Positions 13,780 to 60,227 of a DNA stretch of 64,000 nucleotides are shown piece by piece. The notes under the pieces were generated by a model, which saw nothing but the letters and a program-made list of their open reading frames with translations, was not told the DNA's origin and did not search any database. Source of the DNA: Deltaproteobacteria bacterium (GTDB lineage: Bacteria > Desulfobacterota > GWC2-55-46 > DRQE01); NCBI GenBank assembly GCA_015492495.1, contig WGEY01000088.1:2959-66958 (forward strand), written 5' to 3'. The translations under genes were made by a program, and so were the position numbers. Position 1 is the first letter of the stretch. Each line of letters opens with the position of its first letter.

Positions 13780-14224
13780 CACGGCTCCTCCTTCTCGTCC
13801 TTGAACGACTTTATCCCCATGACAAAGGCCGCCATCGCACCGACCGAGAGGAAGTGATCGAGGATCTTGCCCGCATAGAACACCTTCGCAATCAATGTGG
13901 ATATGTCGATCTTCTGGGTCCATGCACGCACGGAGCCGGAAAAGAACTCGGGCGATAGCGGTTCTCTTATCCAGTGGACCGTAAATGTATCGATGTTCCA
14001 TAGAAGGAACAGGAAGGCCGCTATGCCGATGAACCTCCACCCCGGGGCAGCGTTGGGACCCGCTTTATCTGTATGAAAAGGACGGCCATGGAAAACATGA
14101 AGAAGAGGTGGGCGATCTGATGGGTGTAGAGCCCCTCTGGATCTGCATGTTCCTGGGTAGCCAACGCATCCGGACAGGCTATCAATATCAACAGGACGAC
14201 GACGGGAATAACCTTTTTAAGCAC
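13779..14224 (-). pseudogene. small polytopic membrane protein gene with an apparent 1-nt frameshift in a C4G4 homopolymer; translationally coupled (TGATG) to the sensor kinase
   Basis: Frame A (GTG 14224 with RBS GGAAG; MLKKVIPVVVLLILIAC...HQIAHLFFMFSMAVLFIQIKRVPTLPRG) stops at 14021. Frame B continues protein-like (WRFIGIAAFLFLLWNIDTF...FLSVGAMAAFVMGIKSFKDEKEEP*) to a TGA overlapping the kinase ATG. Inserting one nt in ccccgggg (14041-14048) fuses them into a protein of about 148 aa and 4 TM segments. Confidence 0.35.
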
Positions 14225-35014: not shown

Positions 35015-35509
35015 ATGCCGCTTCCACCATCGAGGAAAAAGCGCAGGAACACAAGGCTCGGTACGGCGACGCTCTCGCTTACGGCGTTGATGGACGTCTT
35101 CACCATAATACTCCTGTTTCTTCTAAAGAGTTATTCGGCCGAGGGCGACATACTGGCGGCCGACCCCAGGCTCAAGCTCCCCCTGTCCACATCCACCGAG
35201 CCCCCCAGGGTAAGGCTGCTCGTTCAGGTGACCCCGGACGACATCATAGTGGATGGAGTGAGGATCACCGGGGTCAGGGATGCGCTTTCCGGCAAGGGGC
35301 TCCTCATAAAACCCCTCTACAAGGAGCTCAATGCACAGGCCAGAAAAACGGAGTTCATTGCAAGGCGGAACCCGGCCGTGAGGTTCACCGGGGAGCTGCT
35401 CATCCAGGGCGACAGGAGCATACCGTTCAGACTGCTTGAAAAGGTCATGTATACCTCCGGACAGGCCGGTTACAACGGAATAGCGCTGGCGGTGATTTCC
35501 CGTGAGTAA
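35015..35509 (+). CDS. exbD: ExbD/TolR-family biopolymer transport protein (copy 2)
   Basis: 164 aa. RRNTRLGTATLSLTALMDVFTIILLFLL... Confidence 0.8.
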   Translation: MPLPPSRKKRRNTRLGTATLSLTALMDVFTIILLFLLKSYSAEGDILAADPRLKLPLSTSTEPPRVRLLVQVTPDDIIVDGVRITGVRDALSGKGLLIKPLYKELNAQARKTEFIARRNPAVRFTGELLIQGDRSIPFRLLEKVMYTSGQAGYNGIALAVISRE

Positions 35510-36908
35510 AAAGGTCTTCTACGTATCAATCCACAAGGAGGGCAAAGCCCCTATGGAGGTACGCCCGGGGAGGCACCTTACCATAGGTGAGTCGTACGAC
35601 TGCGATATAGTGGGTGCGCTCCCCGGTGTCAAGGCCCGGCGTTTCCGCCTCGTCCAGAGGTCGGGCTCCGGTCATTACCTGAGGATACCCGAGGGTTTGA
35701 AGGGAACCGTAAACTGTGCGGGGAAGATCCTGTCCATCGAAGGCCTCGTTGAGCTCGGCCTCCTCAAGAAGAGGAGGGGGGCCTACATCTTAAGGCTGCC
35801 GAGGGACAAGCAATGCACCGTTACGGCGGGGGACATGACCATCACCATGGGCTACCGGGAGGAGGCCCGGCCCCAGGCCGTCGCCGTGCGCATAGACGGT
35901 TCGCTCAAGAGGGCATGGATATCCAGGGAGGACTACTCCTTTCTGACGCTCCTCGTAATATTCGCGCTCGTACACTTTGCAACGGTCAATATACTCCATA
36001 CGATAGAGGTCAGTAAGCCCGAGCCCATTACAGCCATCAAGAAGATGCCTCCCAGATTCGCAAGGCTCATCTTGCAGCCTCCTGAAGAAAGGCCCGTAAG
36101 GAGGACCGTGTCCAGACCGTTTACGGGAGAGGTGGACAAGGGTGGGGCCGATGGCCCTGCAGGCCGGAAGAAGGCCGGCAAGGGCAAACCGGCAAAGGCC
36201 GTGGAAAAGCAGAAGTCCACGGCGGTCGCGAAAAAGGCCGTACCTGTCAAGAAGTCGCTCAAGCAGAGGGTGAGGTCAAAGGGCCTCTTGGGGGTGATAA
36301 CGGCCAAGTCCAGGCTTGCGGTCGTGCCGGCCGACATATTCGAGAAGGCGGATACCGCAATCAAGGATATCAGCAGAACCAGAAGAGTCGGCAAGGACGA
36401 GGTCGACAGTATCGTATCCTCGGTGTCCAGCAGGTTTGCAAAGGCTGAGGTCTCATCCGACGACGTCGCCCTCGCGGTGCCCGAGGTGAAGGGCAAGGAT
36501 ACTGGAAAGCTGCTTACGGAAAAGAAGAGGGTGAAGCTGCTCAATGACGACGGAGGCAGCGGGGGCAAGGGCAAGGGGACAGGCAAGGCCAGGATATCAA
36601 AGGCCGAGCTCAGGCTGAGGGACGAGGCCGAGGTCTACAAGAAGGTTCGTGCCTACATAGGAGGGCTCAAGTACATATACAACAACGCCCTCAGACACGA
36701 CCAGACGCTTAAGGGCAAGGTCACCGTGAGGTTCGTCATAACGCCCGAGGGCAGGGTCAGGGATGTGGTGCTTGTTTCCGCAAGCCTTAAATCATCCGAG
36801 GTGGTGGATAAGATCTTGAAAAAGATATACAGGTGGAAGTTCTCGAGGCTCAAGAGCGGAGAGGACTTCTCCATCACCTATACCTTCGACTTCTCGCCGG
36901 TCGGTTGA
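35502..36908 (+). CDS. TonB-family energy transducer with about 130-aa N-terminal cytoplasmic extension
   Basis: 468 aa. TM segment FLTLLVIFALVHFATV, then a Pro/Lys-rich spacer, then a C-terminal TonB-like domain (LKGKVTVRFVITPEGRVRDVVLVSASL...). Confidence 0.7.
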   Translation: MSKKVFYVSIHKEGKAPMEVRPGRHLTIGESYDCDIVGALPGVKARRFRLVQRSGSGHYLRIPEGLKGTVNCAGKILSIEGLVELGLLKKRRGAYILRLPRDKQCTVTAGDMTITMGYREEARPQAVAVRIDGSLKRAWISREDYSFLTLLVIFALVHFATVNILHTIEVSKPEPITAIKKMPPRFARLILQPPEERPVRRTVSRPFTGEVDKGGADGPAGRKKAGKGKPAKAVEKQKSTAVAKKAVPVKKSLKQRVRSKGLLGVITAKSRLAVVPADIFEKADTAIKDISRTRRVGKDEVDSIVSSVSSRFAKAEVSSDDVALAVPEVKGKDTGKLLTEKKRVKLLNDDGGSGGKGKGTGKARISKAELRLRDEAEVYKKVRAYIGGLKYIYNNALRHDQTLKGKVTVRFVITPEGRVRDVVLVSASLKSSEVVDKILKKIYRWKFSRLKSGEDFSITYTFDFSPVG

Positions 36909-39035: not shown

Positions 39036-40496
39036 TCACAACAGCGGCGAGAAGACCCGGCATATCTCTTCGGAGAACCTGCGAATCTTGCCCTTGTCCT
39101 CTGTGTCCCTGGTCGTCACCTGCCTGGATTCCTCGATGATCGATTCTATCACCCCGCTCACCTGCTGCACGTCGCCGGGGCTGTAGAGGAAGGTTGCTAT
39201 CTCGAAGTTGAGGTGAAAGCTCCTCATGTCCATGTTGGCGGTGCCTACCATGGCCAACCGGCGGTCTATGGCGATCAGCTTGGCATGGAGCATCCTCGGC
39301 CTGTAGAAGTAGAACCTTACACCAGCGGTCATCAAGTCCGGCAGAAATGACCTGCCGGCGAGATCAACCAGCGGATGGTTGGACCGTTCCGGTATCACCA
39401 CACGGACGTCGACCCCCAGGCGGGCCGCCATGGCCAGCGCCGCGGACAGCGGCTCGTCCGGGACGAAGTAGGGGGTGACCACCCATATGCTCTCGCGGGC
39501 CTGGCCGAGCGCGGCAAGGACACCGGAATAGAGCGGACGTTCGAGTATGTCCGGGCCGTCGCCGACCACCTGGACCATGCTGCCGTCACCGTCCTTGTAG
39601 GGAACCGCCCGGGAAGGCATGCCGCAATCCGGATCTTCACCCGTGGTGTATGTCCAGTCCTGCATGAAGACGGTGAGAATATCATTGACTCCGCTCCCCT
39701 CGACCGTCAGGGATACGTCCTTCCATCTCTTTTCATATGGTGAGGGTCCCATGTATTCCTTGGCAAGGTTCATTCCTCCCAGCATGGCCCGCTTGCGGTC
39801 TACTATCACTATCTTGCGGTGGTTGCGCAGGTTTGCCGACCACTTCCTCCTTATGGGCAGAAGCGGCAGGAATATTCCCACCTGACCGCCTGCATCCCTT
39901 ATGGGCTGGACGAACCTGCCCCTGGTGCGGAGACACCCGAGCGCGTCCAGCAAAAGACGTACCTTGACGCCCTCTTCGGCCTTGCGCGCCAGAAGGCTTA
40001 CAAGGGCCCTGCCAACATCGTCACGGCCGAGTATAAAGGTTGCTATCTCGATCGACTCCCTGGCGTCTTTTATCATCCCTACGAGGGTTGCGTAGGCCTC
40101 TGCGCCGTCGTCGATCAACCTGACATCGTTGTCCGATGTCAGGGGAAATGTACCCGACCGCATGAGCAATGTCGCTATCCTCCGGCCGTCGGGCGAGATG
40201 GAGACATCCTCGGGCAGGTGAGGCGGGGTGCTTTCATCGGCCATGCTCCACCTCTTCTCATTGCGTATCTTCTGGATCCTCTTGCCCCCGATAAGGAAGT
40301 AAAGGGGAACCCCGACCACCGGGATCAGTCCGATGGCCATCACCCAGGCGATCGTGGCGCCGGGATGACGACGCTCGAGGAGGATGCGGGGGATCAGTAT
40401 GAGCGCCATTAGGTAACCGGCTACTTCGAGAAAGTGGCCTATGATCCACAGGGAGGTATTCACTGGCAGAGCCGAAGTCCTTTCCTTTTGGTGCAT
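39036..40496 (-). CDS. cls: cardiolipin synthase (two PLD/HKD domains, N-terminal TM segments)
   Basis: 486 aa. HKD motifs (HRKIVIVDRKRAMLGGMNL; HAKLIAIDRRLAMVGTANMD). Confidence 0.85.
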   Translation of the reverse strand: MHQKERTSALPVNTSLWIIGHFLEVAGYLMALILIPRILLERRHPGATIAWVMAIGLIPVVGVPLYFLIGGKRIQKIRNEKRWSMADESTPPHLPEDVSISPDGRRIATLLMRSGTFPLTSDNDVRLIDDGAEAYATLVGMIKDARESIEIATFILGRDDVGRALVSLLARKAEEGVKVRLLLDALGCLRTRGRFVQPIRDAGGQVGIFLPLLPIRRKWSANLRNHRKIVIVDRKRAMLGGMNLAKEYMGPSPYEKRWKDVSLTVEGSGVNDILTVFMQDWTYTTGEDPDCGMPSRAVPYKDGDGSMVQVVGDGPDILERPLYSGVLAALGQARESIWVVTPYFVPDEPLSAALAMAARLGVDVRVVIPERSNHPLVDLAGRSFLPDLMTAGVRFYFYRPRMLHAKLIAIDRRLAMVGTANMDMRSFHLNFEIATFLYSPGDVQQVSGVIESIIEESRQVTTRDTEDKGKIRRFSEEICRVFSPLL

Positions 40497-40623
40497 CAGG
40501 CCTTTCGCTTGGCCTGTTGCGATCGAGGTGGGGACCGGTCCATTCCACGTAACAAGTGAGACGAGCCTTAAACGGCCAGGGCCTGTATCGTTTGGTTACC
40601 GCGGCAATCCTTCGGCAGGGCGT

Positions 40624-42522
40624 TCAGGTGACGTTGGCCTCTTGCAGGTCCACACCATGCAACATCTGTTTTACCTCTTCGCCGCTTATGACCTCCTTCT
40701 CGTGCAGGCGTGCAGCTACGGCATCGAGGGCTGTGCGCTTCTCCTTCAGTATCTGACGCGCCCTGTTCTGCCCTTCTTCCACCAGGGCACGCACCTCGTC
40801 GTCTATGATGCGCGCCGTCTCTTCACTGTAGTTGCGTTCGGCGGACTCTTCCACACCCAGGAAGACGAGTTTTCTCTGCTTGCCGTAGGTGAGCGGGCCG
40901 AGTTTGTCGCTCATGCCCAGCTGGGTCACCATCGCTCGTGCGATCTCCGTTGCCCGCTCCAGGTCGTTTTGTGCACCGCTGGACACGTCGCCGAAGACCA
41001 GCTCCTCGGCCACCCTTCCGCCAAGCAGGATGGCGATCTGGTCCTTCAGCTCGCGCTTGGTCGAAAGAAATTTTTCCTGCACGGGAAGCTGCAGCGTGTA
41101 ACCCAGGGCGGCCGCACCGTGCGGAATGATGGATACCTTGTGCACCGGCTCTCCCGTCGGCACGGTCACCGCCACCAGGGCGTGTCCCGATTCATGGAAC
41201 GCCACGCGGCGTTTTTCCTCTGCGCTCAGGGTGCGGTGCTTCTTCTCCGGACCGGCTATCACGCGGTCGATCGCCGCCTCGAAGTCCTCCATGGTCACCG
41301 CGTCGTGGTTCTTCCGCACGGCACGGATTGCCGCCTCGTTGGCGATGTTGGCAAGGTCCGCGCCGACGAACCCTGGCGTGCGTTTAGCTATCACCCTCAA
41401 GTCCACGTCATCGGCCAGCTTCATCTTGCGCGTGTGCAGCTTGAGGATGGCTATGCGCGCCTCGAGGTCCGGCTTGTCCACCACGATCTGGCGGTCGAAG
41501 CGTCCGGCGCGCAGAAGCGCCTTGTCGAGTATCTCGGGACGGTTGGTGGCCGCCATGACCACCACGCCGACGGACGGGTCAAAGCCGTCCATCTCCGTAA
41601 GCAACTGGTTCAGGGTCTGCTCGCGTTCGTCGTGTCCCCCCATGGCGGGTCCAGCGCCCCTGGCCCTGCCGATTGCGTCCAGCTCATCGATGAAGACGAT
41701 GCAGGGCGCCTTTTGTCTGGCCTGCTCGAAGAGGTCGCGCACCCGGGCCGCCCCGACGCCGACGAACATCTCGATGAACTCGGAGCCGCTTATGTTGAAG
41801 AACGGAACCCCGGCCTCGCCGGCGACTGCGCGGGCCAGAAGTGTCTTCCCCGTGCCGGGCGGTCCCATAAGCAGTATCCCCTTCGGCATGCGCCCGCCCA
41901 GGCGCTGTATGCGCGTAGGATCCTTGAGGAACTGGATGACCTCCTGCAGCTCCTGCTTGGCCTCCTCAGCGCCGGCCACGTCGTCGAAGGTCACCTTGAC
42001 ACCGCCTTCCGGGTGTATACGAACCCTGTTGCCGATGTTCAGAAACCCCCTGCCGGGACCCATTCGGTTGGCGATCCAGCCCCACAACAGGAACAGGAAT
42101 CCAAAGGGCAGCACCCAGTTGAAGAAGAAGTTGCTCAGCCAGTCGTTGGAAGGACGCACCGTGTATCTTACGCCGTGCTCCTCCAGTGTCTGCGCAAGCT
42201 CGTCGTTCCAGAGGGGTACCGTGACGAAGCGCCTTGGCTGCCCGGTCTCCTCGTCTTTCAGCTTCAACGTTCCGGTGATGAGCTTGTCCGTGACCACGGC
42301 ATCGGCGACCTGCCCCTCCTTTACGTAGCGAAGAAAGTCGCTGTAGGGCAGCTCCTCGCGGCGCATCTTCTCGGCACCCTGCCAGACATAGAGCGACAGC
42401 GCAAGAAATATCAGGTACATCAGCAGCAGTACATTCGGGTTCTGCCAGTACCTGCGCTTGGCCGGCTTGTTGATCTCTATATCGGGCTTCTTGCCACCGG
42501 CGTTGAAGTCAGTCTTTTTCAT
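40624..42522 (-). CDS. ftsH: ATP-dependent zinc metalloprotease FtsH
   Basis: 632 aa. Walker [12 protein letters not shown] region, HESGHA zinc motif. Confidence 0.95.
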
Positions 42523-42600
42523 ACCAGTTCTTCTCCTGTAAAGCGGGCTTGGAAACCGACTTGTGGATTGATCTCTCCGGATATGGCTTATCGTTTTTTG

Positions 42601-43860
42601 TTATACCCCGATCTCACAGATCCGTCCGGCTTCATCCCATTTTTTGACGAGGTAGGGCTTGAGCTCCTCGAAGCGCTGTGCGTACTCCTCGATGACACCC
42701 TCTGCCTCGGCGTTCGTCAACGCTTCGGTCCTGTTTATGAAAGACGCGACATTGGCATAGTAGAGCGGGGTCATGGTGTTTACGAGCTTCACCCTGTTCT
42801 TCGGCCACCTGTGAAAGGTGGCGGCGAAGTCGTAGACGATGCGCGCCCAGAGGTCAATATCGAGTTGCAACTCATCGCGGTGCGCCTTCTTGAGCTCCCT
42901 TACGGCCTTCATGTCCTCCTTTGACAGGATCGATTTCCAGAGGGGAGCGAAGTGCTCGCAACCCAAACGGAAGCTCTCCACGAGTAGTTCCTTGTCCACG
43001 GGGAACGGCTCAGGCTCCTCCGACGGCACTTCACCGACCATGTCGACGGGTGTACTGCCCTTGACCGCCTTCCACTGTCTCTCGTACTTCTCCATGAGAC
43101 CGAACATGGTTGCCACCACCTCCCGGAACATCGGGCCAAGGGATTCTCCGGGGTCCTTCTTGCCGTGCACCTTCACCCCTAAGGGCGCCTGGCAGAGGCG
43201 GTGCCCCCCTGTAATGGCCGTCGTTGTCATCCAGATGTCTATTCCGAATGTGGCAACGTCCGTATCCCATACGTCCTCCTTGAGGTAGGTCTCCGCAAGG
43301 GACGTCGAGAAGCAGAAGTCGCCCCCTATGGGCTGGCGTATGCGTTTTCCGTAGAGCATGCGGGTCATGTTGTAGGCTATGTTGTTTGTGATCGTCCCGT
43401 CATACTTGTACCTGTTGTAGAGTGGCGCCACGAAGTCGTACTCTCCTGAGATCACGGGCGAGGCGAGTTTCTGGATCCAGTCCGGCGTGATGGAACGCAG
43501 GTCCGCATCCAGCACGACCGTTGCCTGTACCTTGAGGTAGCTGGCCGCCTCGAATATGGACCTCAGGGCCGACCCCTTGCCCGGTATGCCCCTGTAGATC
43601 TGGACGAGTTTTTCCACGTATGGATCGAGTATAACATCCTTGGCCTCGTCCCTTGTGTCATCGGTTGAACCGCCGTCGGAGACGAAGATGAGCGTTCTCA
43701 TGCCAGGAAACGAGAGCATCGCCCCGTGTGAGGCGGTCTTCATCACATGGCGTATCGTCTGGTCGTTGTTGTAGGAAGGTATGCCTATGAGAAGATCGGC
43801 CCGTCTTATCTCTTCAAGCCGCTTGATGGTGTACTCGCGTAGAGAGGTCAGAAAGGACAT
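42601..43860 (-). CDS. family-2-type glycosyltransferase, glucosyl-/mannosyl-(3-phospho)glycerate synthase-like
   Basis: 419 aa. GT-A fold features (LLIGIPSYNNDQTI; DAD motif in VVLDADLRSI). The specific assignment is tentative. It has a sigma70 promoter and a long leader. Confidence 0.5.
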   Translation of the reverse strand: MSFLTSLREYTIKRLEEIRRADLLIGIPSYNNDQTIRHVMKTASHGAMLSFPGMRTLIFVSDGGSTDDTRDEAKDVILDPYVEKLVQIYRGIPGKGSALRSIFEAASYLKVQATVVLDADLRSITPDWIQKLASPVISGEYDFVAPLYNRYKYDGTITNNIAYNMTRMLYGKRIRQPIGGDFCFSTSLAETYLKEDVWDTDVATFGIDIWMTTTAITGGHRLCQAPLGVKVHGKKDPGESLGPMFREVVATMFGLMEKYERQWKAVKGSTPVDMVGEVPSEEPEPFPVDKELLVESFRLGCEHFAPLWKSILSKEDMKAVRELKKAHRDELQLDIDLWARIVYDFAATFHRWPKNRVKLVNTMTPLYYANVASFINRTEALTNAEAEGVIEEYAQRFEELKPYLVKKWDEAGRICEIGV

Positions 43861-48769: not shown

Positions 48770-51196
48770 TCAACACCTGTCCGTACCCGTCTCCCTCTCG
48801 ATCGCCTTTTCAATCTCCTTGACCTTGAGGGTGATCTTCATAACCGAGTCCGGGTTAAGTGAGATGGCTTCTATGCCTTCCCTTACGAGAAACTCCGCGA
48901 ACTCCGGGTAGTCGCTCGGCGCCTGTCCGCATATGCCGCTGTGACGTCCGTTCCTTCTGGCCCCCTGGACGGCCATGGAGATCATCTTCATAACGCCCGG
49001 GTCCCGCTCGTCAAAGTCATGCGCCAGGAGCTCCGAGTCCCTGTCCACCCCCAGGGTGAGCTGCGTCAGGTCGTTGGAGCCTATGGAGAAACCGTCGAAG
49101 ATGCGGCTGAACTCGTCTATCAGCATGACGTTGTTCGGTATTTCGCACATGACATAGACCTTGAGGCCGTTTACCCCCCTTTCGAGACCGTTCCTTTCCA
49201 TCTCGGCAAGGACCTTCCTGCCTTCATCCACGCGCCGGCAGAACGGTATCATGATGACGAGGTTGGTGAGCCCCATTTCGTCGCGGACCCTTTTCATGGC
49301 CCTGCACTCGAGCGCAAAGCCTTCCATGTACCGTTCGTCGTAGTAGCGCGCAGCCCCCCTGAACCCTATCATGGGGTTCTCTTCCTTGGGCTCGAAGTAC
49401 CGTCCTCCGACGAGGCTTGCATATTCGTTGGTCTTGAAGTCGCTCATGCGAACGACGACAGGCTTGGGGTAGAAGGCGGCGGCTATGGTGCCCACTCCGT
49501 GGGCAAGCCTTTCCACGAAGTACTCCGTCTTGTCTTCGTACCCGAAGGTGAGCTCTTCCACCTGCCTTCTGACCTCCTCGTCCTCCATCTTCTCCGGATG
49601 GACGAGAGCCATGGGGTGTATCTTTATGTAGCTGTTGATGATGAACTCCATGCGAGCAAGCCCCACGCCGTCGTTCGGTATCATGGAAAGGGAGAAGGCC
49701 TCGTCCGGGTTGCCGAGGTTCATCATGATCTTTGTCTTCGGCCGTTCGAGGTCGCCGAGGCTGAGCCTCTCGACGTGAAAGGGCAGTATGCCGTCATAGA
49801 GGATCCCCTTATCGCCCTCGGCGCAGCTCACGGTGACCGCCTGGCCTGTACGTACCCTTTCCGTGGCCCCCTCCGCCCCCACCACCGCAGGGATTCCGAG
49901 CTCACGGCTTACTATGGCGGCGTGACAGGTCCTGCCCCCCCTGTTTGTCACGATCCCTGCGGCCGTTTTCATGACAGGTTCCCAGTCCGGCGTGGTGGTG
50001 TCGGTTATGAGTATCTCGCCCGGCCTGAAGGAGGAGAGGTGTCCGACGTCGGGTATCACCCGTGCGTTGCCGCAGGCTATCTTTTCGCCCACGCTCTTTC
50101 CCACGGCAAGGACTGGCCCCTTTTTGTCCAGGTGATATGTTTCGAGCACATCCATCGCCTTCCTGGACTGGACGGTCTCGGGCCTTGCCTGCACGATGAA
50201 GATCTCTCCGGTCACACCGTCCTTGGCCCACTCTATGTCCATGGGACGTCCCTCTCCGGCCTTTTCAGAGTAATGGTCCTCTATGGTTATTGCATATCCG
50301 GCCAGCTCGATGATCTCGTCGTCCGTCAGGCAGAACCGTTTTCTTTCCGCCTCAGGGACCTCCACGTTCCTCGTAAGCACCTTCGAGTCCCCGCGGCCGT
50401 AGATCATCTTGATCCTCTTGTCGCCGAGCCTCTTTCTTATGATGGACCTGAAGCCCTTCCTGAAGGTGGGCTTGAAGACATAGTATTCGTCCGGGGTTAC
50501 CGCGCCCTGGACGATGTTCTCTCCCAGCCCGTAGGATGCGGTGATGAAGACCACGTCGCGGAAACCGGTCTCCGTGTCGAGTGTGAAGATCACCCCGCTT
50601 GTGGCCATGTCCGAGCGCACCATCTTCATGACCCCTATGGACAGGGCCACCTTGAAGTGGTCGAAGTTGTTGTTTATGCGGTACGATATCGCCCGGTCGG
50701 TAAAGAGCGAGGCAAAGCACTTTGCGCAGGCCTCCCTCAGGGACTGGTGGCCGCGAATGTTTAGGTAGCTCTCCTGCTGCCCTGCGAAGGAGGCGGTAGG
50801 GAGGTCCTCTGCCGTTGCAGAGCTTCGTACGGCAACGTCTGTGTCGGGACCGTACTCTTCACAGAGCCTGTCGTAGGCGGCCTTTATCTCCTCCCAGAGG
50901 TCGTCCGGGATGCCCGCACCTATGATGAGGTCTCTCGCCCGCTTTGCCCGCACAGCAAGATCGTCGACATCCGCCTTGTCGATGCCTGACATGGCCTGCC
51001 TGAGCCCGTCGAGTATCCCGGCCGAACCTATCACATACCAGTATGCCTCGGCGGTTACGGCGAAGCCGTTGGGAATCCTGACCCCTCGGCCGGCAAGCTC
51101 CCGGTACATCTCGCCCAGCGAGGCGTTCTTCCCGCCTACGAGCGGAACGTCTTTTATGTCGATTTCTTCAAACCACTTGATATACATAGGCTTCAT
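48770..51196 (-). CDS. ppsA: phosphoenolpyruvate synthase (pyruvate, water dikinase)
   Basis: 808 aa. N-terminal PPDK ATP-binding domain, phospho-His domain (GGRTCHAAIVSRELG), C-terminal PEP-utilising domain. Confidence 0.9.
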   Translation of the reverse strand: MKPMYIKWFEEIDIKDVPLVGGKNASLGEMYRELAGRGVRIPNGFAVTAEAYWYVIGSAGILDGLRQAMSGIDKADVDDLAVRAKRARDLIIGAGIPDDLWEEIKAAYDRLCEEYGPDTDVAVRSSATAEDLPTASFAGQQESYLNIRGHQSLREACAKCFASLFTDRAISYRINNNFDHFKVALSIGVMKMVRSDMATSGVIFTLDTETGFRDVVFITASYGLGENIVQGAVTPDEYYVFKPTFRKGFRSIIRKRLGDKRIKMIYGRGDSKVLTRNVEVPEAERKRFCLTDDEIIELAGYAITIEDHYSEKAGEGRPMDIEWAKDGVTGEIFIVQARPETVQSRKAMDVLETYHLDKKGPVLAVGKSVGEKIACGNARVIPDVGHLSSFRPGEILITDTTTPDWEPVMKTAAGIVTNRGGRTCHAAIVSRELGIPAVVGAEGATERVRTGQAVTVSCAEGDKGILYDGILPFHVERLSLGDLERPKTKIMMNLGNPDEAFSLSMIPNDGVGLARMEFIINSYIKIHPMALVHPEKMEDEEVRRQVEELTFGYEDKTEYFVERLAHGVGTIAAAFYPKPVVVRMSDFKTNEYASLVGGRYFEPKEENPMIGFRGAARYYDERYMEGFALECRAMKRVRDEMGLTNLVIMIPFCRRVDEGRKVLAEMERNGLERGVNGLKVYVMCEIPNNVMLIDEFSRIFDGFSIGSNDLTQLTLGVDRDSELLAHDFDERDPGVMKMISMAVQGARRNGRHSGICGQAPSDYPEFAEFLVREGIEAISLNPDSVMKITLKVKEIEKAIERETGTDRC

Positions 51197-51512
51197 TGAT
51201 CCCCTCCTTGATCACCTCTTCGCCGTTGTCAAGGATCCGGACGGTCTCCGACCGGCATGGTTCCGTTGTCGGCGTGGGTGTGCTCAAATTATATATTAAC
51301 CCGTGGAATCCGGCAACCGGCGGATTCCACGGGAGCAGTCGGGCTGCGGCGCCCGTTACCCTGGCTGGCGTGGCTGCGCCGCATGGTGACGTGGCATGAT
51401 TATGCAGGGAAGGAAGGATAGTGCCGTCGTCCGGAGGGCGGATGACGGCATGGGTGACTTCCGCAAAAAAGAAAGGAGGTTACGGGAACCACCGTAACCT
51501 CCTTAGATTTAC

Positions 51513-51588
51513 TGGTGGAGCTGAGGGGGGTCGAACCCCTGACCTCATGGCTGCCAGCCATGCGCTCTCCCAACTGAGCTACAGCCCC
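51513..51588 (-). tRNA. tRNA-Ala (anticodon GGC), CCA encoded
   Basis: Reverse complement GGGGCTGTAGCTCAGTTGGGAGAGCGCATGGCTGGCAGCCATGAGGTCAGGGGTTCGACCCCCCTCAGCTCCACCA folds as a cloverleaf. G3:U70 Ala identity pair; anticodon loop CTGGCAG. Confidence 0.85.
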
Positions 51589-51702: not shown

Positions 51703-52563
51703 TCAGCGCCTGTCCATCGTATCGAAGACGGCGTTCCTTATATCCATGATGGGGACGGGCTTTATTATGTATCTTAGCCCGTTTTCTTTGAAAAATGCCA
51801 GACGGCTCGGGTTATCGTAGGTCGTCATGAAGATGAAGCGTTGCTCCATGTTTGGGTATCTCCTGGAGGCGGCCGTGTAGAGCTCGATTCCGTCCATGAC
51901 CGGCATGTCCACGTCGGCCAGTATGACGGCGAAGTACCTCTTGGCGAGTTTTTCGAGGGCCTCCTTGCCGTTGGATGCGCACTCGACCGCACCCTCGCTG
52001 GACAGAGCCTCTGATAGAAGGTAGGCCGTGGGCACGGAGTCGTCGACCACGAGCAGGTTCTCGCGCCAGAGCGAAGGGAGCCGCCTTATGTTCTCGATGA
52101 ACCTGTTCGACCCCGACTGCGACTGGATGAACCTCTCTACATACCTTTTGTGGTGCTGGATGCTGGCGACGAATGGTATGAACTCCCTCGATGTTTCCTT
52201 CAACGAATTGATGACGTATTGAAAGACCTCGTTCCATTCGGCGAACTCGATGTCAGCTACGCAGTCCAAGAGTGTCTCCCTTGTAAGGCACCCCCGGTCC
52301 AGTTCCTTTCTGCACGCGGCGATGCCGAGGTGGACTTTGGTCATCGGGTCTTCGTCGAGCGACCTGAAGCAGGAAAGGGAGGGAAGGGTTTCGAGGGATT
52401 CGTCGGCCTCGAGCAGCGTTTCATGGTGGTATCTTTCGTCGTCTGCAAGGCGCCGGAGGAACACGGTCAGCTCCTTGTCCGAAGAGAACGCATTCGCGGC
52501 CTCTTCATAAAAGCTGCCGAAAGACGCCTCCATCAATGTCAGCCACTGAATGATCTCCTTCAT
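51703..52563 (-). CDS. response regulator with C-terminal receiver domain and uncharacterised N-terminal helical domain (paralog 1)
   Basis: 286 aa. Receiver LLVVDDSVPT...ILADVDMPVMDG...IIKP at the C-terminus. N-terminal domain ...ASFGSFYEEAANAF...LADDERYHHETL... Confidence 0.7.
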   Translation of the reverse strand: MKEIIQWLTLMEASFGSFYEEAANAFSSDKELTVFLRRLADDERYHHETLLEADESLETLPSLSCFRSLDEDPMTKVHLGIAACRKELDRGCLTRETLLDCVADIEFAEWNEVFQYVINSLKETSREFIPFVASIQHHKRYVERFIQSQSGSNRFIENIRRLPSLWRENLLVVDDSVPTAYLLSEALSSEGAVECASNGKEALEKLAKRYFAVILADVDMPVMDGIELYTAASRRYPNMEQRFIFMTTYDNPSRLAFFKENGLRYIIKPVPIMDIRNAVFDTMDRR

Positions 52564-52756
52564 GCCGGCCCCCGGTCGGTAAGGTTTATAAGTCCTAATG
52601 GTTTATATGTAAGTAATGGACCGGGAAAGCCACACTTAGGTTCTTACTTAAAGTATAGTGTGACTTTCAGGCATGTCAACCGATCGCCTGTTCCTTAGTG
52701 TTGTTAGGTGCCTGCAAGGGGGGTGAATGGCCTTCTGTAGAACTATGTGGTGGAGA

Positions 52757-53620
52757 CTACCGCCTGTCCAGGAGTTTGACCACTGATTCGCGTATCTCGC
52801 TTATAGGGGCTGGTTTTATCATGAACTTGAGCTTGTTCTTCTTGAAGAACATTATGCGCTCGGAGTCGTCGTCCGCGGTGAAGAACAGGAAGCGCTGCTT
52901 CATGTTGGGGTACTTGTTGGCTGCGGCTATGTAGAAGTCGATGCCGTCCATCTCCGGCATCTCCACATCCGCTATGATGACGGTGAAGTACTTCTCCTTT
53001 ATCTTCTCGAGCGCCTCCCTTCCGTTCGACGCCGTCTCGACAATGCCTTCTTCGCAGAGCGTGGCCTTGAGCAGGTGCAGCTCCGGCTCCGAGTCGTCCA
53101 CCACCAGGACCCTTTCCTGCCAGAGCGGCGGAAGGTCCTTAACCCTTTGGAGGTAGCTCTCTCCCTCGGGCAGCCTCGAGAGGAACCTCTCGATGAACCT
53201 CTTGTGTTGCTGTATCTTCGCCGCAACGGGTATGAAGTCCTTTGAGTGGGCCTTCAACGTCTTGATCGCATACAGGAAGATTTCATTCCACTCGGAGAAC
53301 TCTGCGGCTATGACGGCATCCAGTAGGGCGTTTTTAGAGAGTTCGTTCCTGTCCATTTTGGATGTGCACTCGTCGAAGATGTGAAGGAGCTTTTTTTTCG
53401 TATCCGTGTCGACGGATATGAGCGAGGGGAGGTTGTTGCGGCTTTTCAGGCCTTCAGCAGCCTTGAGGATTATGGCTTTGTGTTTCTTCTCGTCATCACA
53501 CAGTCCCTTCAGGAACTGAGCCAACTCCGTGTCGCCGGAGAAGTACTCCGCGGCCCTTCTGTAGAAGTTCGCGGCCGTATCCTCCATCTGGACGAGCCAG
53601 TCTATAACTTCCTTCATCAT
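52757..53620 (-). CDS. response regulator with C-terminal receiver domain and uncharacterised N-terminal helical domain (paralog 2)
   Basis: 287 aa. Collinear with 51703-52563 (MMKEVIDWLVQMEDTAANFYRRAAEYF...LCDDEKKHKAI...; receiver VLVVDDSEPE...IIADVEMPEMDG...MIKP). Confidence 0.7.
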   Translation of the reverse strand: MMKEVIDWLVQMEDTAANFYRRAAEYFSGDTELAQFLKGLCDDEKKHKAIILKAAEGLKSRNNLPSLISVDTDTKKKLLHIFDECTSKMDRNELSKNALLDAVIAAEFSEWNEIFLYAIKTLKAHSKDFIPVAAKIQQHKRFIERFLSRLPEGESYLQRVKDLPPLWQERVLVVDDSEPELHLLKATLCEEGIVETASNGREALEKIKEKYFTVIIADVEMPEMDGIDFYIAAANKYPNMKQRFLFFTADDDSERIMFFKKNKLKFMIKPAPISEIRESVVKLLDRR

Positions 53621-53879
53621 GATCTTACCCCGGATTTGAGCAATTGGTATCCGTTTACATCGCTAAGACTCCGGTGCAGCTGTACGCATGGAAGTGCCAG
53701 ATGACGGTCTGGGATAAAGCACCTACATTGTAATGTATGATAAAGTCGTTGTCAACGGGATATGATGGTCGTAAATTCCGAGTTGACCACCTGTGGGCCG
53801 GGCTTGACAAGCCGTTGCGGCGCGGATATACTTGACCGGACAAGTGAGTGTTTGCTCACCAACGCCGGTTGTTGGAAAA

Positions 53880-54529
53880 TGAAGACCACGAGGGCAGCGG
53901 AAAAAAATACCGGACCGAGGCGGATGACGAGCCTCGAGCGCAGGCGCCAGATTGTGGATGTAGCCGGCAGGCTCTTTTCCAGAAAGGGCTTCAAGGGTAC
54001 GACCACCCGTGAGATAGCCCGGGAGGCCGGGATAAGCGAGGCCACGATATTCAAATACTTCGCCCGCAAGGAGGCGCTCTTCGAGGCCATAATAGACCGC
54101 TGCTGCAATGACGAGAGCGGCAACCTGACGCTCATGAAAAAACTCGACGGCAAGCAGGGCAGGGAGGCCTTCGAGGAGGTCGTGGAGTTCTTCATGGAGA
54201 GATACGCCGAGGATCCTTCGTTCGCCAGGCTTCTGATGTTCAGCGCGCTGGAGCGCGAGAAGTTTTCGGAGATATTTTTCAGGTCAAAGGGCATGGAGGT
54301 GCTCGGATACCTGTCCAGACAAATAGAAGGCATGATGGAGAAGGGGGTCTTCAGGCCGCTCGACCCCGAGCTGTGCGCAAGGGCGTTTCTCGGCATGGTC
54401 ATCCATTACTGCATGGTCCAGGAGATCTTCGGGTTCAAGAGGTTCTTCGACCGTCCCCGCGCAGTGGTTGCCGAGACCTTCGTCGATATATTCCTGAACG
54501 GCATGGTTACGAGGGAGAGGCATAAATGA
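53880..54529 (+). CDS. TetR-family transcriptional regulator
   Basis: HTH RRRQIVDVAGRLFSRKGFKGTTTREIAREAGISEATIFKYF. Start is ATG 53880, or the alternative ATG 53925. The stop overlaps the next start. Confidence 0.75.
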
Positions 54530-55863
54530 GAAAGCCAGTTTTGCATCCACGACGCTTTCGCGGCCTGCCGTGCACGGCAGCGCTTGCGGCCTTTTTATTA
54601 TCCCTGCTCGTGCCTGCAGGGCTTCTTGCTGGAGAGGTCGTAGACATACGCAAGGCATGGCGAAGCGCCCTTGAAAACCACGAGGCCGTGCTGATCGCGA
54701 GGGAGTCCCTTGCCAGGAGCGAGATGGAGATCAAGAGGGCCTACTCGAAGTTTCTGCCGACGCTCGGCGTTGAAGGCACCTACACGCGGTACACGGAAAA
54801 AAAGACCACCAGTGGGTTCCTCATACAACCGGATGACAGCACCAGGTACGAGGTCAGGCTCAGGCAGTACCTGTACACAGGTGGAAGGGCTATGAGCCTC
54901 CTGAGACAGGCCAGGGCAAGCCTTGATGCAAGCCGCAAGGGCCTTGGGGACGTCCGAGAGACCGTGTTGATCGAGGCATCGAGGGCGTACTACGGGTTGC
55001 TCAAGGCCGGCAAGGAGGTGGGTATCCGCGAGGCATCTTTAAGGCGTGCGAATGAGCAGCTCAAGGCCGCCAGGGCGCGTTTCAGGGTAGGCACGGCGAC
55101 AAGGGCCGACGTGCTGAGGGCCGAGGCCGAGGTCGCCTCCAAGGAGGCCGAGCTCTCAACGGCCGAAGCCGCGCTCAAAGACGCAAGGGACCTTTTCTCG
55201 AGGGTCACAGGCATCACCGGTGAGGTCGAAGCAGATTCGGCCGTGCAGGTCTCCACCGTAGAGATGGGCGTGGAAGAACTCGAGCGGCTCGCCTTTGAAA
55301 AGAGAATGGATTACCAGCAGAAGAAACTCGCTGAGGATATTGCAAGGGAGCAGGTGAGGTATGCAAAGGCCAACTTCATGCCCACGCTCGACGTGCAGGG
55401 TGTCTACGAGTACAGGGAACAGACCCCGGAGACGACCTTCCTTCTGAACGATGTCACGTACGGAACGGTGACGCTCTCCATACCGCTCTTCGAGGGCGGG
55501 CTCAAGCGGGCCGAGCTCAAGCAGGCGCGGAGCAGGCTCAGGGAGGCGGAGCTTGAAAGGCTGCGTTACAAGCGCGACGTCAAGCTCGAGGTCCGCCGGG
55601 CCTACAACAAGATGGAGGCCGCGCGTTCCGTGATCGCATCCTATCGAAAGCAGGTCACCTTTGCGCGCGAGAATTACTCCATGGTCTTCAAACAATACAG
55701 GCACGGACTTGCCGACAGCACCGACCTAATAGACGCGGATACCATCCTTGTTTCGGCAGAGCTCGGGCTTACGAGGGCGAGCATAGACTATGAACTCTCG
55801 GTCCTCGAGCTCAAAAGGAGCACCGGGATACTGCTCGACGAGGTCGAGGAGATGCTCGAATAA
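54526..55863 (+). CDS. TolC-like outer-membrane efflux protein (OMF)
   Basis: 445 aa. Signal peptide, two repeated coiled/beta halves, SLDASR/SYRK motifs typical of outer-membrane factors. Confidence 0.8.
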   Translation: MRKPVLHPRRFRGLPCTAALAAFLLSLLVPAGLLAGEVVDIRKAWRSALENHEAVLIARESLARSEMEIKRAYSKFLPTLGVEGTYTRYTEKKTTSGFLIQPDDSTRYEVRLRQYLYTGGRAMSLLRQARASLDASRKGLGDVRETVLIEASRAYYGLLKAGKEVGIREASLRRANEQLKAARARFRVGTATRADVLRAEAEVASKEAELSTAEAALKDARDLFSRVTGITGEVEADSAVQVSTVEMGVEELERLAFEKRMDYQQKKLAEDIAREQVRYAKANFMPTLDVQGVYEYREQTPETTFLLNDVTYGTVTLSIPLFEGGLKRAELKQARSRLREAELERLRYKRDVKLEVRRAYNKMEAARSVIASYRKQVTFARENYSMVFKQYRHGLADSTDLIDADTILVSAELGLTRASIDYELSVLELKRSTGILLDEVEEMLE

Positions 55864-55926
55864 ACGGGATGCGGCCAGTCCGGGCCGCATCCATATGGAC
55901 ATAAAAAATCAGGAGCAGCATCAATC

Positions 55927-57039
55927 ATGAAAAGACTGTCGCTTTTTTGCCTGATCTTCCTGGCCGCGGTCCTCTTTCAGGGGTGCAAGGGCGAAGAAAA
56001 GCCCGGTGTAAAGGGACACGGGGTGCGCGCCGCCGCCGTCTTCAATGTCAGGGCATGGCGGGCTTCGAGGCAGGATTTACCCAAGACCATCCGGGCCGTG
56101 GGGACGCTCGAGCCCGAGCAGGATGTCATAGTGAGCTCAGAGGTCACGGCAAGGCTTACAAGGCTCCTTCACGACGAGGGGGACAGGGTACGCAAGGGAG
56201 AGAGTCTTGCGCTCCTCGACAATGAGAAGTTCAGCCTCAGGGTCTCCAAGACCGAGGCTGACCTGAAGAGGGCCAGGGCCGCGCTCCACTACGCAGAAAA
56301 GGACCTCGAAAGGAAGAGGGAGCTTCTCGATGAGGGCATGGTCACGCAGGAGGCCTATGATCAAGCGCTTTCCAGGCGGGATTCGGCGATGGCCGACGTT
56401 GAGAGCATGGAGGCCGCGCTCAGGCTCGCCCAGAGGGATCTCATGGAGTCGAACGTAAAGGCGCCGTTTTCCGGCCACCTCGCCGAGAGGTTCGTATCCG
56501 TGGGCAGCTACGTAGGAGAGGGTGAGAGGCTCTTCAGGCTGATAGACATAGGCCATCTGAAGGTCTCCGCCTCCATCCCGGAGAGACATCTACCGGAGGT
56601 ACGCATCGGGCAAAAGGTGCTCGTTACGACCAGTACGGGCGATGACGGGGAGTTCAGCGGTGCCATCTACTTTATAAGCCCGCACGTGGACGAAAAGACG
56701 CGGAGCTTCGAGATAAAGGCAAGGATAGGGAACCCCGGCGAGGTGCTCAAGCCCGGTCTCTTTGTCGACGTTACGGTCGTAACGGGCATGAGAAAGGGGG
56801 TCTTCCTCGTGCCGGAGTCCGGTGTGCTCAGCCGCGACGGCCGGAACGTCGTCTTCGTGGTCTCTGACAATACGGCCCACATGAGGGAAGTGACGGTTCT
56901 GGACAGGGCAGACGGCATGGTTGTGGTGGGAGAGGGGCTTGGAGAGGGCGAACTGGTGGTCGTCGACGGGGCGTATGATCTGCAGGAAGGTTCGAAGGTC
57001 AGGGTTGTCGACTCCCGTGGGGAGGCAGGAGGTCATTGA
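55927..57039 (+). CDS. RND efflux periplasmic adaptor (membrane fusion protein, HlyD family)
   Basis: 370 aa. Lipoprotein signal (LFQGC), coiled-coil hairpin, barrel domains. Confidence 0.85.
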   Translation: MKRLSLFCLIFLAAVLFQGCKGEEKPGVKGHGVRAAAVFNVRAWRASRQDLPKTIRAVGTLEPEQDVIVSSEVTARLTRLLHDEGDRVRKGESLALLDNEKFSLRVSKTEADLKRARAALHYAEKDLERKRELLDEGMVTQEAYDQALSRRDSAMADVESMEAALRLAQRDLMESNVKAPFSGHLAERFVSVGSYVGEGERLFRLIDIGHLKVSASIPERHLPEVRIGQKVLVTTSTGDDGEFSGAIYFISPHVDEKTRSFEIKARIGNPGEVLKPGLFVDVTVVTGMRKGVFLVPESGVLSRDGRNVVFVVSDNTAHMREVTVLDRADGMVVVGEGLGEGELVVVDGAYDLQEGSKVRVVDSRGEAGGH

Positions 57040-57164
57040 TGGTACGTACATGCACGTTGCACGTGTCGTCTTCGGCCGATGCGTTTTTTTTGCAGCCGTT
57101 TGCGGTGCCTCGATGCACCGGCCCGCGCCTGTTACGGTGAAGAGAAGATTGATAGGATGCCTGG

Positions 57165-60100
57165 ATGATATTACCTGAGATAGCGATAAGAAGGCCTGTA
57201 ACCACCTTCATGATGATGGCCGCGCTCTTGGTCTTCGGGCTGATCGGTTACACGAGGCTGGGGGTAGACCAGTACCCGAAGGTCGACTTTCCCGTGGTGA
57301 CGGTCACCACCGTGCTCGAGGGCGCCAGCCCCGAGGTCATAGAGGAGAACATAACCGACGTGATCGAGGAGGAGGTGGCGACCATAGAGGGTGTCAGGAG
57401 GCTCACAAGCATTTCCTCGCACGGTGCGTCGGTTGTGACCGTCGAGTTCAACATGGACAGGGACATAGACCTCGCGGCCCAGGACGTGAGGGACAGGGTG
57501 AACCGCATCCTCAGGGAGCTCCCCGACGACGCTGAGGTCCCGGTGGTGGACAAGCTCGACATACAGTCGCAGCCCATCATGTGGATAGCCGTCTCCGGAC
57601 GGCGTCCGATACAGGATGTGACCGGTTACGCGGACGATGTCCTGAAACCCAGGCTCGAGACGGTAAAGGGCGTGGGGTCGATCATCCTCGGAGGCAAGAG
57701 GGAGAGGGCCATAAGGGTGTGGCTGGACAGGGACAGGCTCGAGGCGTACGGGCTTACCTCCGGTGACGTGGTGGCGGCGCTGAGGCGCGAAAACGTCGAG
57801 ATCCCGGGCGGCTTCATAGAGAGCAGGAATGTTGAGTTCAGCGTGAAGACCGAGGGCAAGTTCAGGGAGGTCCGGTCGTTCGAAGATCTCATCGTGGCCT
57901 ACGATAAGGGGAGCCCGGTAAGGATCAGGGATATCGGCCGTGTGGAGGACGGGCTCGAGGACAGGCGCAGCCTCGCCCGGTACAACGGAGAGCCTGCGGT
58001 AGGACTCGGCGTAATAAAGAAGTCCGGGGCCAACACCGTGGAGCTCGCCCGGCTGATCAAGGAGGAGCTCGCCAGGGTACAGAAGGACCTGCCCGCCGGC
58101 ATAAAGACCGAGGTTGCCTTCGACGCGTCGGTCTTCATCGAGGACAGCATCGAGGAGATGGAGTTCGCCCTGGCGTTCGGCGGGCTCCTGGCCGCGGTGG
58201 TGGTCTTCTTCTTCCTGCGCAATCCCACGGCGACGATAATAACCGGGACCACCATCCCGCTCGCCATCATAGGTAGCTTCGTCTTCATCTACTTCATGGG
58301 CTTCACCATGAACACCATGACCATGCTCGCCTTAACGCTGGCCATAGGTGTAGTCATAGACGACGCCATAGTCATAGTGGATAATATCCACAGGCACAGG
58401 GAGAAGGCTCGGGACTCCATTGAGGCGGCCAGGAACGGCACAAACGAGATAGCCTTCGCCGCCGTGGCCACCACCTTCGCCCTCGCCGCGGTCTTCATCC
58501 CAGTGGCGTTCATGAAGGGCATTGTGGGAAGGTTCTTCTTCGAGTTCGGCATAACGGTGGCCGTCGCCGTTTTCCTTTCCACCTTCATCGCACTCACCTT
58601 CACCCCGATGCTGTCGTCGAGGTTTCTCAGGCCCACGCGCCGGGATTCGCGCTTTTTTACCACCATGGAGTCCTTTTACTCGCGGGTCGAGGCCACATAC
58701 AGGAGGCTTCTGGCGTGGGCGCTCACGCACAGGGCGCTCGTGGTCACCTCGGCGGTGGTCATATTCCTTGGAAGCCTCGCGATATGGGTCTTCATCGGCA
58801 AGGAGTTCATACCGCCCGAGGACCAGTCGAGGTTCATAGTCAGGTTCGAGACCCCCATAGGCTCTACGATGGATTACACGGACGAAAAGCTCAGGTTCAA
58901 CGAGGCCGTCCTGAAGGATCTGCCGGAGATAAAGAGCTTCTTTGCGGCCGTCGGGCTCGGCGATGCCTCGAACGTGAACAAGGGGCTCATGTTCGTGAGG
59001 ATGGTCCCCAAAGAAGAGAGAGAAAGGAGCCAGAGCGAGGTCGTGGCCTTCCTGAGGAGGAAGCTGAACAGCGAGCCGGGGCTCAAGGTATATGTTATGC
59101 CGCTGGGCTTCGGGTTCGGCGCCAGAAGGGGCACCCCGCTTGAGTTCATAGTGATGGGGCCGTCCGTCGAAGAGCTCGACAGGCTGACGACAGAGATCAC
59201 GGAGAGGTTCAAACGTGTCCCGGGCATAGTCGGCGTGCATACGGACTTCGACGCCGGCCTTCCCGAGATCCGTGTCTACATAGACCGCGACAGGGCCGCC
59301 GACCAGGGGGTGGATACCACCACGCTTGCGTCGACGATAAACACGCTCATAGGCGGAAGGGATGTTACAAAGTACAAGGAGGGCGGAAAGCGTTACGACG
59401 TGAGGGTCAAGCTCGTTCCCTCTCAGAGGATGACCCCCCAGGACATAGACAAGCTGCACGTGAGGAACAGGGACGGCAGGCTCGTCAGGCTCTCGGGCAT
59501 GATAAGGATCGAGGAGGGGACCGCACCGAGCGTCATAAACAGGTACAACAGGCAGAGGAGCGTCACAATCTTCGCAAACATGGAGGAGACCAAGACCCTC
59601 GGCTCCGCCATAGACGACATATCGAGGATCGCCGAGGATGTGCTTCCCGAGGGGTACACGACCGAACTGGGGGGCAGGGCCGAGCAGTTCAGGGAGTCGC
59701 TCGAGGGGATGCTCCTGGCCTTCTTTCTTGCTGTCCTTATAACCTACATGGTGCTGGGCTCCCTCTTCGAAAGCTTTCTGCACCCCTTTACCGTGATGCT
59801 GGCCCTGCCGCTCAGCACGGTCGGCGCACTCGGCGGGCTGTGGCTCACCGGCAACACCATAAACATCTACAGCCTCATAGGCCTCACGCTCCTGGTGGGC
59901 CTCGTCACCAAGAACTCCATCCTGCTTGTGGACTACACTAACACCCTGCGCCACAGGGGGCTCGGCATGCGCGAGGCTGTGCTCGAGGCAGGCCCCGTGA
60001 GGCTCAGGCCCATACTCATGACCGCGCTTTCCACGATATTCGGCGTGCTTCCGACGGCGCTCGGCGTGGGGCCGGGCAGCGAGTCGAGGGCCCCCATGGC

Positions 60101-60227
60101 CATAGCCATAGTGGGGGGGCTTTTCAGCTCCACCGTGCTCACGCTCGTCGTCATACCGGTCGTCTATACGTTGTTCGATGATCTCAAGGGGAGGATCTAC
60201 GGGCGCAGGTCCGCTGGTTCCGTTTAA
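57165..60227 (+). CDS. RND-family efflux transporter permease (AcrB/CzcA-like)
   Basis: 1020 aa. 12 TM segments and two large periplasmic loops. Conserved RND N-terminus [25 protein letters not shown]. Confidence 0.9.

Follow-up and report, generated by a model that had tools for sequence, protein, structure and literature searches.

Tandem response regulators from a deltaproteobacterium join a C-terminal receiver to an N-terminal ferritin-like domain with a conserved, probably metal-binding site

Two adjacent genes on the minus strand of a 64,000-nucleotide stretch of deltaproteobacterial DNA (GenBank assembly GCA_015492495.1, contig WGEY01000088.1, positions 2,959 to 66,958; the whole stretch is referred to as the window) encode paralogous response regulators, RR-A (52757..53620, 287 aa) and RR-B (51703..52563, 286 aa), in which a C-terminal receiver follows an N-terminal ferritin-like helical domain. 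We consider it very probable that these are phosphorylatable receiver proteins whose ferritin-like domain holds a cation-binding, probably di-iron, site. That the metal centre serves as the input and the receiver as transmitter and integrator is a model to which we give an even chance, and it is with somewhat more reserve that we propose a new class of sensor domain, in which a di-iron centre, one of its carboxylates relocated (E, ExxH, ExxE, H), would read O2, peroxide or Fe(II) and directly gate the receiver. A preliminary description of this DNA, made from the sequence alone, had placed tandem paralogs at 51703-53620; two open reading frames (ORFs) were found at exactly these coordinates, and their products align from end to end without gaps (48% identity, E 2e-101).

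The C-terminal position of a CheY-like receiver in both proteins, which had also been claimed, was borne out by Pfam, where Response_reg (PF00072) matched RR-A and RR-B at about residues 171-280 with 54.9 and 55.1 bits, respectively (cutoff 30.2; E about 1e-14 in both proteins, 1.1e-14 in RR-B). The receivers (about residues 170-285 of RR-A, 52766..53113, and about residues 169-284 of RR-B, 51712..52059, both on the minus strand) have the (beta-alpha)5 fold and keep the full set of phosphorylation residues, namely D175, D176, D218, T248 and K269-P270 (RR-A numbering, used below unless stated otherwise). To judge by these residues, both are complete, phosphorylatable CheY-like domains.

For the N-terminal domain (residues 1-168 of RR-A, 53117..53620; residues 1-167 of RR-B, 52063..52563; both minus strand), structure prediction yielded a four-helix bundle with one crossover connection. 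The four helices of the preliminary description therefore stood as the core of the domain, but not as a bare bundle, since the domain also has a linker helix at its C-terminal end (153-162) and a crossover helix (72-90). Helix C is kinked in the predicted structure, with a DSSP break at 108-110. Searches of PDB sequences with the domain, run with a single sequence and with a profile, returned exclusively diiron-type four-helix-bundle proteins. The matches were to the Pyrococcus protein 2fzf (E 4e-6 when a 55-sequence profile was used), the designed Due Ferri (DF) diiron proteins (E 1e-4), many ferritins and TM1526 (1vjx), deposited as a 'putative ferritin-like diiron-carboxylate protein'; in 3ezu, a Geobacter GGDEF protein, the N-terminal domain was matched as well. 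The Pfam family Rubrerythrin (PF02915, cutoff 22.8) scored 22.8 bits with full-length RR-A, 25.0 bits with its isolated N-terminal domain and 14.3 bits, under the cutoff, with RR-B, in a match spanning helices A and B only (profile positions 8-61 of 137). Among 55 N-terminal domains of the family to which the two proteins belong, weak Pfam matches were obtained to Rubrerythrin (26 domains, E<=0.1), Ferritin_2 (12) and COQ7 (8). Pfam Hemerythrin gave no match at E<=1, and a CxxC pair of the kind that makes up a rubredoxin-like Fe(Cys)4 site is absent from both RR-A and RR-B.

In the alignments to PDB diiron proteins and ferritins, the Glu of helix A coincided with E13 and the ExxH of helix B with E44xxH47, and the first half-site of such centres (a Glu on helix A plus ExxH on helix B) is present in RR-A as E13 and E44-K-K-H47 (53480..53491, minus strand). 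The matches to diiron proteins and this half-site in register support, at the level of sequence, the likeness to ferritin-like or other metal-binding bundles that had been suspected, and the N-terminal motifs listed earlier, E13..FY20..AA..F27, DDE44(K/R)xH47 and EF(S/A)EWNE at 107-113, are all present. Aligned to RR-A, the corresponding residues of RR-B are E12, Y19, E43xxH46, E106xxE109, N111 and H138. The second half-site departs from the canonical Glu on helix C plus ExxH on helix D: E107 and H139 are present, and position 136, the slot of the ExxH Glu, holds no Glu, its three commonest residues being Ile, Met and Leu. The helix C motif of RR-A (E107-F-S-E110-W-N112, 53285..53302, minus strand) lies at the predicted helix break, which is flanked by E107 and E110, and carries a three-residue insertion relative to 1vjx; the extra invariant E110 on this insertion may substitute for the missing Glu of helix D (Q137-Q-H139 in RR-A, 53204..53212, minus strand). 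No meaningful sequence counterpart of this second half-site was found among PDB sequences. With four carboxylates and two His the ligand set has the count of a canonical diiron-carboxylate centre, whereas its arrangement differs. On a rough estimate based on the helix boundaries and the up-down-crossover-down-up topology of ferritins, the six Glu/His residues would all be found at the same central level of the bundle.

Conservation was counted in 249 full-length members of the family. E107, E110, N112 and H139 are found in all 249, E13 in 246 of 246, Y20 in 248 of 249, and E44 and H47 in 247 of 249 each, and the counts at position 137 are 150 for Q, 48 for E and 31 for D. Since the mean column identity of the N-terminal domain alignment is only 43%, this near-invariance argues for strong selection on the site. 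All eight residues (E13, Y20, E44, H47, E107, E110, N112 and H139) are better conserved than the phospho-acceptor Asp, as D218 is kept in 212 of the 249 members (K269 in 241). The other 37 members (15%), which include P0003, P0005 and P0009, are pseudo-receivers with E, N, G, S, C or T at position 218, and 35 of these retain the whole metal-site set, K and R replacing E44 and H47 in the remaining two. That the site is kept despite the loss of D218 shows it to be more indispensable than phosphorylation and argues both against the bundle being a mere accessory of the receiver and, in this part of the family, against a signal that starts from phosphorylation. The pseudo-receivers lacking D218 were also observed to be enriched for Glu or Asp at helix-D position 137.

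Covariation between the two domains was strongest for helix D residues 130/134 and receiver residues 211/213/237, one of these pairs being the second-highest overall. These pairs cluster on a single face of helix D (130, 134) and, in the receiver, on a face made up of residues 211-213 and 237, which we regard as its 'bottom' (the N-terminal end of beta3 and the alpha3-beta4 loop), and they hint weakly at a fixed contact of the two domains. In the mechanism that we propose, the buried residues E13, E44xxH47, E107xxE110 and H139, with Y20 and N112 nearby, would bind two metal ions, probably iron. The occupancy or oxidation state of this centre, responding to Fe(II) availability, O2, H2O2 or NO, would change the bundle in the region of helix D and the kinked helix C, and this change would travel through the linker helix (153-162) and the fixed interdomain contact to the receiver, altering its phosphorylation, its dephosphorylation or the binding of a partner. 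In this way a redox or metal signal and a phosphoryl input coming from a distant kinase or phosphorelay would be brought together in one protein. The architecture, the predicted fold, the invariance of the ligands, the size of the family and the lack of conserved neighbours are observations; that the bundle binds metal, which metal this is, which way the signal runs and what partner lies downstream are points that we infer.

We favour the sensor model because the ligand-binding module is N-terminal to the signalling module, because 3ezu shows an analogous arrangement of a ferritin-like domain with GGDEF, because members without the phospho-acceptor mostly keep the metal site, because there is no electron-transfer domain or metabolic neighbour, because the hosts are anaerobic, and because hemerythrin di-iron sensors such as DcrH set a precedent (PMC9388753). 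In the hemerythrin-domain O2/redox sensors DcrH and Bhr-DGC as well as Bhr-HD-GYP, a non-haem di-iron four-helix bundle is fused to a signalling module in anaerobes such as Desulfovibrio, and a receiver fusion is found in none of the characterised classes (PMC9388753). RR-A and RR-B follow the same functional logic as these sensors, whereas fold family and ligand set differ: hemerythrin ligands are five His, one Glu and one Asp, and the N-terminal domain of the RR-A/RR-B family has two invariant His only.

Among the closest known relatives, TM1526 (1vjx), 2fzf, 2oh3 and 2qqy (COG1633 / rubrerythrin-like) are stand-alone proteins of ~150 aa and of unknown function; in contrast to them, the domain of RR-A and RR-B is fused to a receiver, has the three-residue insertion and the kink with E110 in helix C, and carries (Q/E)xH rather than ExxH in helix D. 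Rubrerythrin (PF02915) belongs to the same superfamily as the N-terminal domain of RR-A, and differs from RR-A and RR-B in that these have a receiver in place of the rubredoxin-type domain and lack the helix-D Glu; the helix-C ExxE pair recalls the extra Glu among the ligands of D. vulgaris rubrerythrin. In the Geobacter sulfurreducens protein NP_951600.1 (3ezu), a structural-genomics entry with an unidentified ligand, the ferritin-like domain is combined with a diguanylate cyclase (GGDEF) and not with a receiver. The order of domains, with a functional N-terminal domain followed by a C-terminal CheY-like receiver in a protein that is not a kinase, is shared with CheV (CheW-REC) and PatA-type (PATAN-REC) proteins; their N-terminal domains (CheW-like and PATAN) are unrelated, and they have defined pathway contexts, whereas the RR-A/RR-B family has none. 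A literature search of incomplete coverage turned up no paper on the fusion of a receiver with a ferritin-like or rubrerythrin-like domain, and no functional work on 3ezu or on TM1526/COG1633.

Several points weigh against the sensor model. Metal binding is itself a step that we infer, and the replacement of the canonical helix-D Glu by Ile, Met or Leu makes the site atypical; it could be mononuclear, or could hold Mn or Zn instead of Fe. The similarity to 3ezu in sequence is weak (E 0.53), and the covariation signal may be phylogenetic rather than the mark of an interface. The domain of a response regulator that is not the receiver is conventionally its output, and the signal could flow the opposite way, from the receiver to the N-terminal domain. 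Finally, the family neighbourhoods that were compared give no clue to a partner, kinase or target.

The main rival is a receiver-controlled diiron enzyme. The ferritin-like domain would then be the output, acting for instance as an oxidase, a ferroxidase or a peroxidase like rubrerythrin, and phosphorylation of the receiver would turn this activity on or off. Enzymatic partner domains are familiar in response regulators (for example CheB, PleD and RpfG), strict invariance of the ligand set would be equally expected of a catalytic site, the ExxE pair of helix C recalls rubrerythrin, and the structural neighbours of the N-terminal domain include the catalytic diiron proteins R2-like oxidase, aldehyde deformylating oxygenase and Mn catalase. 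We nevertheless regard such an enzyme as rather unlikely. Enzymatic response regulators normally carry their receiver N-terminally, and RR-A and RR-B have neither a rubredoxin or other electron-donor domain nor a conserved neighbour to supply electrons or substrate; the N-terminal domain is small (168 aa) and has no evident substrate-binding extension. Moreover, nearly all of those members that have lost the phospho-acceptor keep the site, which indicates that control by phosphorylation is dispensable.

We see a smaller chance still that the proteins act as a phosphorelay intermediate or phosphate sink, in which the N-terminal domain would bind Fe(II), much as the ferroxidase site of a ferritin does, would report iron status only and would tune the flux through a His-Asp-His-Asp relay in control of iron or respiratory metabolism in metal-reducing bacteria. 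In line with such a role, the receiver reached its best NCBIfam scores against those of hybrid kinases, among them EspA, LvrA, BarA, CckA and ArcB, Fe(III)-reducing Desulfuromonadales, for example Geoalkalibacter ferrihydriticus, are enriched among the hosts of the family, and helices A-D carry E, Y(i+7), ExxH, E, Q, a pattern that resembles the ferroxidase centre of H-ferritin. However, the NCBIfam scores are far under every family cutoff, which leaves the receiver subtype undefined, neither an Hpt protein nor a hybrid kinase is a conserved neighbour, and a relay of this kind falls within the sensor model and is no real alternative to it. A metal-free helical adaptor, in which the ferritin fold would serve dimerisation or protein binding and the polar residues would form a hydrogen-bond network, is the least probable of the three and unlikely: it would fit the missing helix-D Glu and the presence, among the structural neighbours, of ferritin-fold proteins other than classical diiron proteins (for example DUF305, CopM and PA2169), but six buried Glu/His in the ligand positions of ferritins, which vary little or not at all among the 249 sequences, are hard to explain without a cation, and the A/B half-site is in register with bona fide diiron motifs.

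To our knowledge, non-haem di-iron sensing in bacteria has so far been known from hemerythrin domains. If the sensor model is correct, a ferritin-fold signalling domain would be a second, independent solution to di-iron sensing and a counterpart to hemerythrin and globin-coupled sensors, and anaerobic metal- and sulfate-reducing bacteria would possess a single protein that combines redox status with input from a phosphorelay. What is new is the undescribed domain that partners the receiver in these response regulators, a ferritin-fold analogue of hemerythrin di-iron signalling; some automated annotations already name both domains. The unusual arrangement of ligands should interest bioinorganic chemists, the subset with a degenerate phospho-acceptor is a natural experiment on the use of a receiver without phosphorylation, and the family is concentrated in environmentally important anaerobes of the iron and sulfur cycles. 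The occurrence of a member in Geoalkalibacter ferrihydriticus (WP_040096111.1), which we take to be a cultured species, makes the hypothesis directly testable.

An exhaustive search of 1.84 billion cluster representatives with a hidden Markov model (HMM) of the N-terminal domain retrieved 294 matches at E<=1e-30, 463 at <=1e-10 and 687 at <=1e-3, which puts the family at about 300 clusters at 50% identity. Word-indexed searches with single N-terminal domains had suggested a very rare family (5 and 3 proteins), a view that was dropped when the exhaustive profile search gave hundreds. Nearly all of the 150 best HMM matches are 280-300 aa long, a length that fits the two-domain architecture. Among the 120 proteins listed in a word-indexed profile search, PF00072 was almost always the sole precomputed domain, and only receiver fusions or fragments were seen, with no fusion to GGDEF, to a histidine kinase (HK) or to a methyl-accepting chemotaxis protein (MCP), relatives between E 1e-30 and 1e-3 lying outside this listing. 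Members are annotated as 'response regulator' or 'CheY-like chemotaxis protein', and four JGI entries as 'CheY-like chemotaxis protein/rubrerythrin'.

The hosts that could be named are mostly Desulfuromonadales, Desulfobacterales and other 'delta-proteobacterial' metagenome-assembled genomes (MAGs), with a few Verrucomicrobiota; besides that of G. ferrihydriticus, a protein of Trichloromonas sp. (WP_432823963.1) carries an organism name. Loci and taxa were surveyed with one narrow peptide pattern and are a lower bound. A protein identical to RR-A (P0001) occurs in several MAG assemblies, the window itself has its matches in uncultured MAG assemblies, and a near relative of RR-B (P0006) is 99% identical to it over the N-terminal domain. 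At least two other genomes have two unlinked or distant copies (L018 and L020 on CAWKAV010000010.1; L012 and L023 in MAG JAOUDB01), and two family copies on one contig are about 21 kb apart, so that several paralogs per genome appear to be common and their tandem placement not; among the surveyed loci, the tandem pair was found only in the genome of the window. A recent tandem duplication was considered and rejected, as the 48% identity between RR-A and RR-B equals that to proteins of other organisms (48% to P0164 and P0171), which points to old paralogs.

The RR-A and RR-B genes are separated by a spacer of 193 bp. A sigma-70-like promoter sequence (TTGACA-17-TACAAT, 11/12) was found 5' of RR-A at 53727..53755 and another (TTGACA-16-TATACT, 11/12) in the spacer 5' of RR-B at 52652..52679, both on the minus strand and both consensus matches only. 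Since RR-B has a promoter-like site of its own, the two genes may be transcribed separately. Between this site and the start codon of RR-B (window 52583..52610) lies a direct repeat with a spacing of 17 bp, GGTTTATAAGT / GGTTTATATGT, which could be an operator or a chance match.

Downstream, the pair is flanked by a tRNA-Ala(GGC) gene (51513..51588), a PEP-synthase-type gene (ppsA, 808 aa, 48770..51196) and a cluster encoding a Na+/H+ exchanger, a Usp protein and a P-type ATPase; the adjacency of ppsA and the tRNA was correctly given in the preliminary description. A strong intrinsic-terminator-like hairpin (51473..51504, minus strand), consisting of a 13-bp stem followed by a T-run, is located directly after the tRNA and upstream of ppsA, a position that speaks against co-transcription of ppsA with the tRNA and the regulators. 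ORF clustering over 21 family loci brought out no recurring neighbour family besides the regulator itself, and the seven contexts annotated with Pfam were all different and had an adjacent kinase in none. A functional link to ppsA, to the tRNA or to the TetR/RND operon described below was discarded, because none of these recurs at other family loci, and the position of ppsA and tRNA-Ala next to the pair is incidental.

In agreement with the earlier statement that no kinase is adjacent, none was found among the ORFs and in the Pfam context within about 10 kb on either side of the pair. About 38 kb away, a hybrid sensor kinase of 987 aa (11077..14040, minus strand) with at least two PAS domains, HisKA, HATPase_c and a C-terminal receiver is the sole kinase among the ten large ORFs scanned; that it serves as phospho-donor for the pair is conceivable but unsupported. 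Two further long ORFs on the plus strand (40441..42924, 827 aa, and 35502..36908, 468 aa) had no Pfam match at E<=1e-5, both overlap long ORFs of the opposite strand, and they may be spurious or may encode unannotated proteins.

Upstream, the pair is flanked by an operon divergent from RR-A (53762..60227, plus strand), which encodes a TetR regulator, an outer-membrane factor (OEP), a periplasmic adaptor (MFP) and an RND efflux pump. Compared with an otherwise matching MAG locus (L002), the window shows a 30-bp difference in the spacer that separates the OEP gene from the adaptor gene, and in another locus (L001) the adaptor gene was called at only 216 aa.
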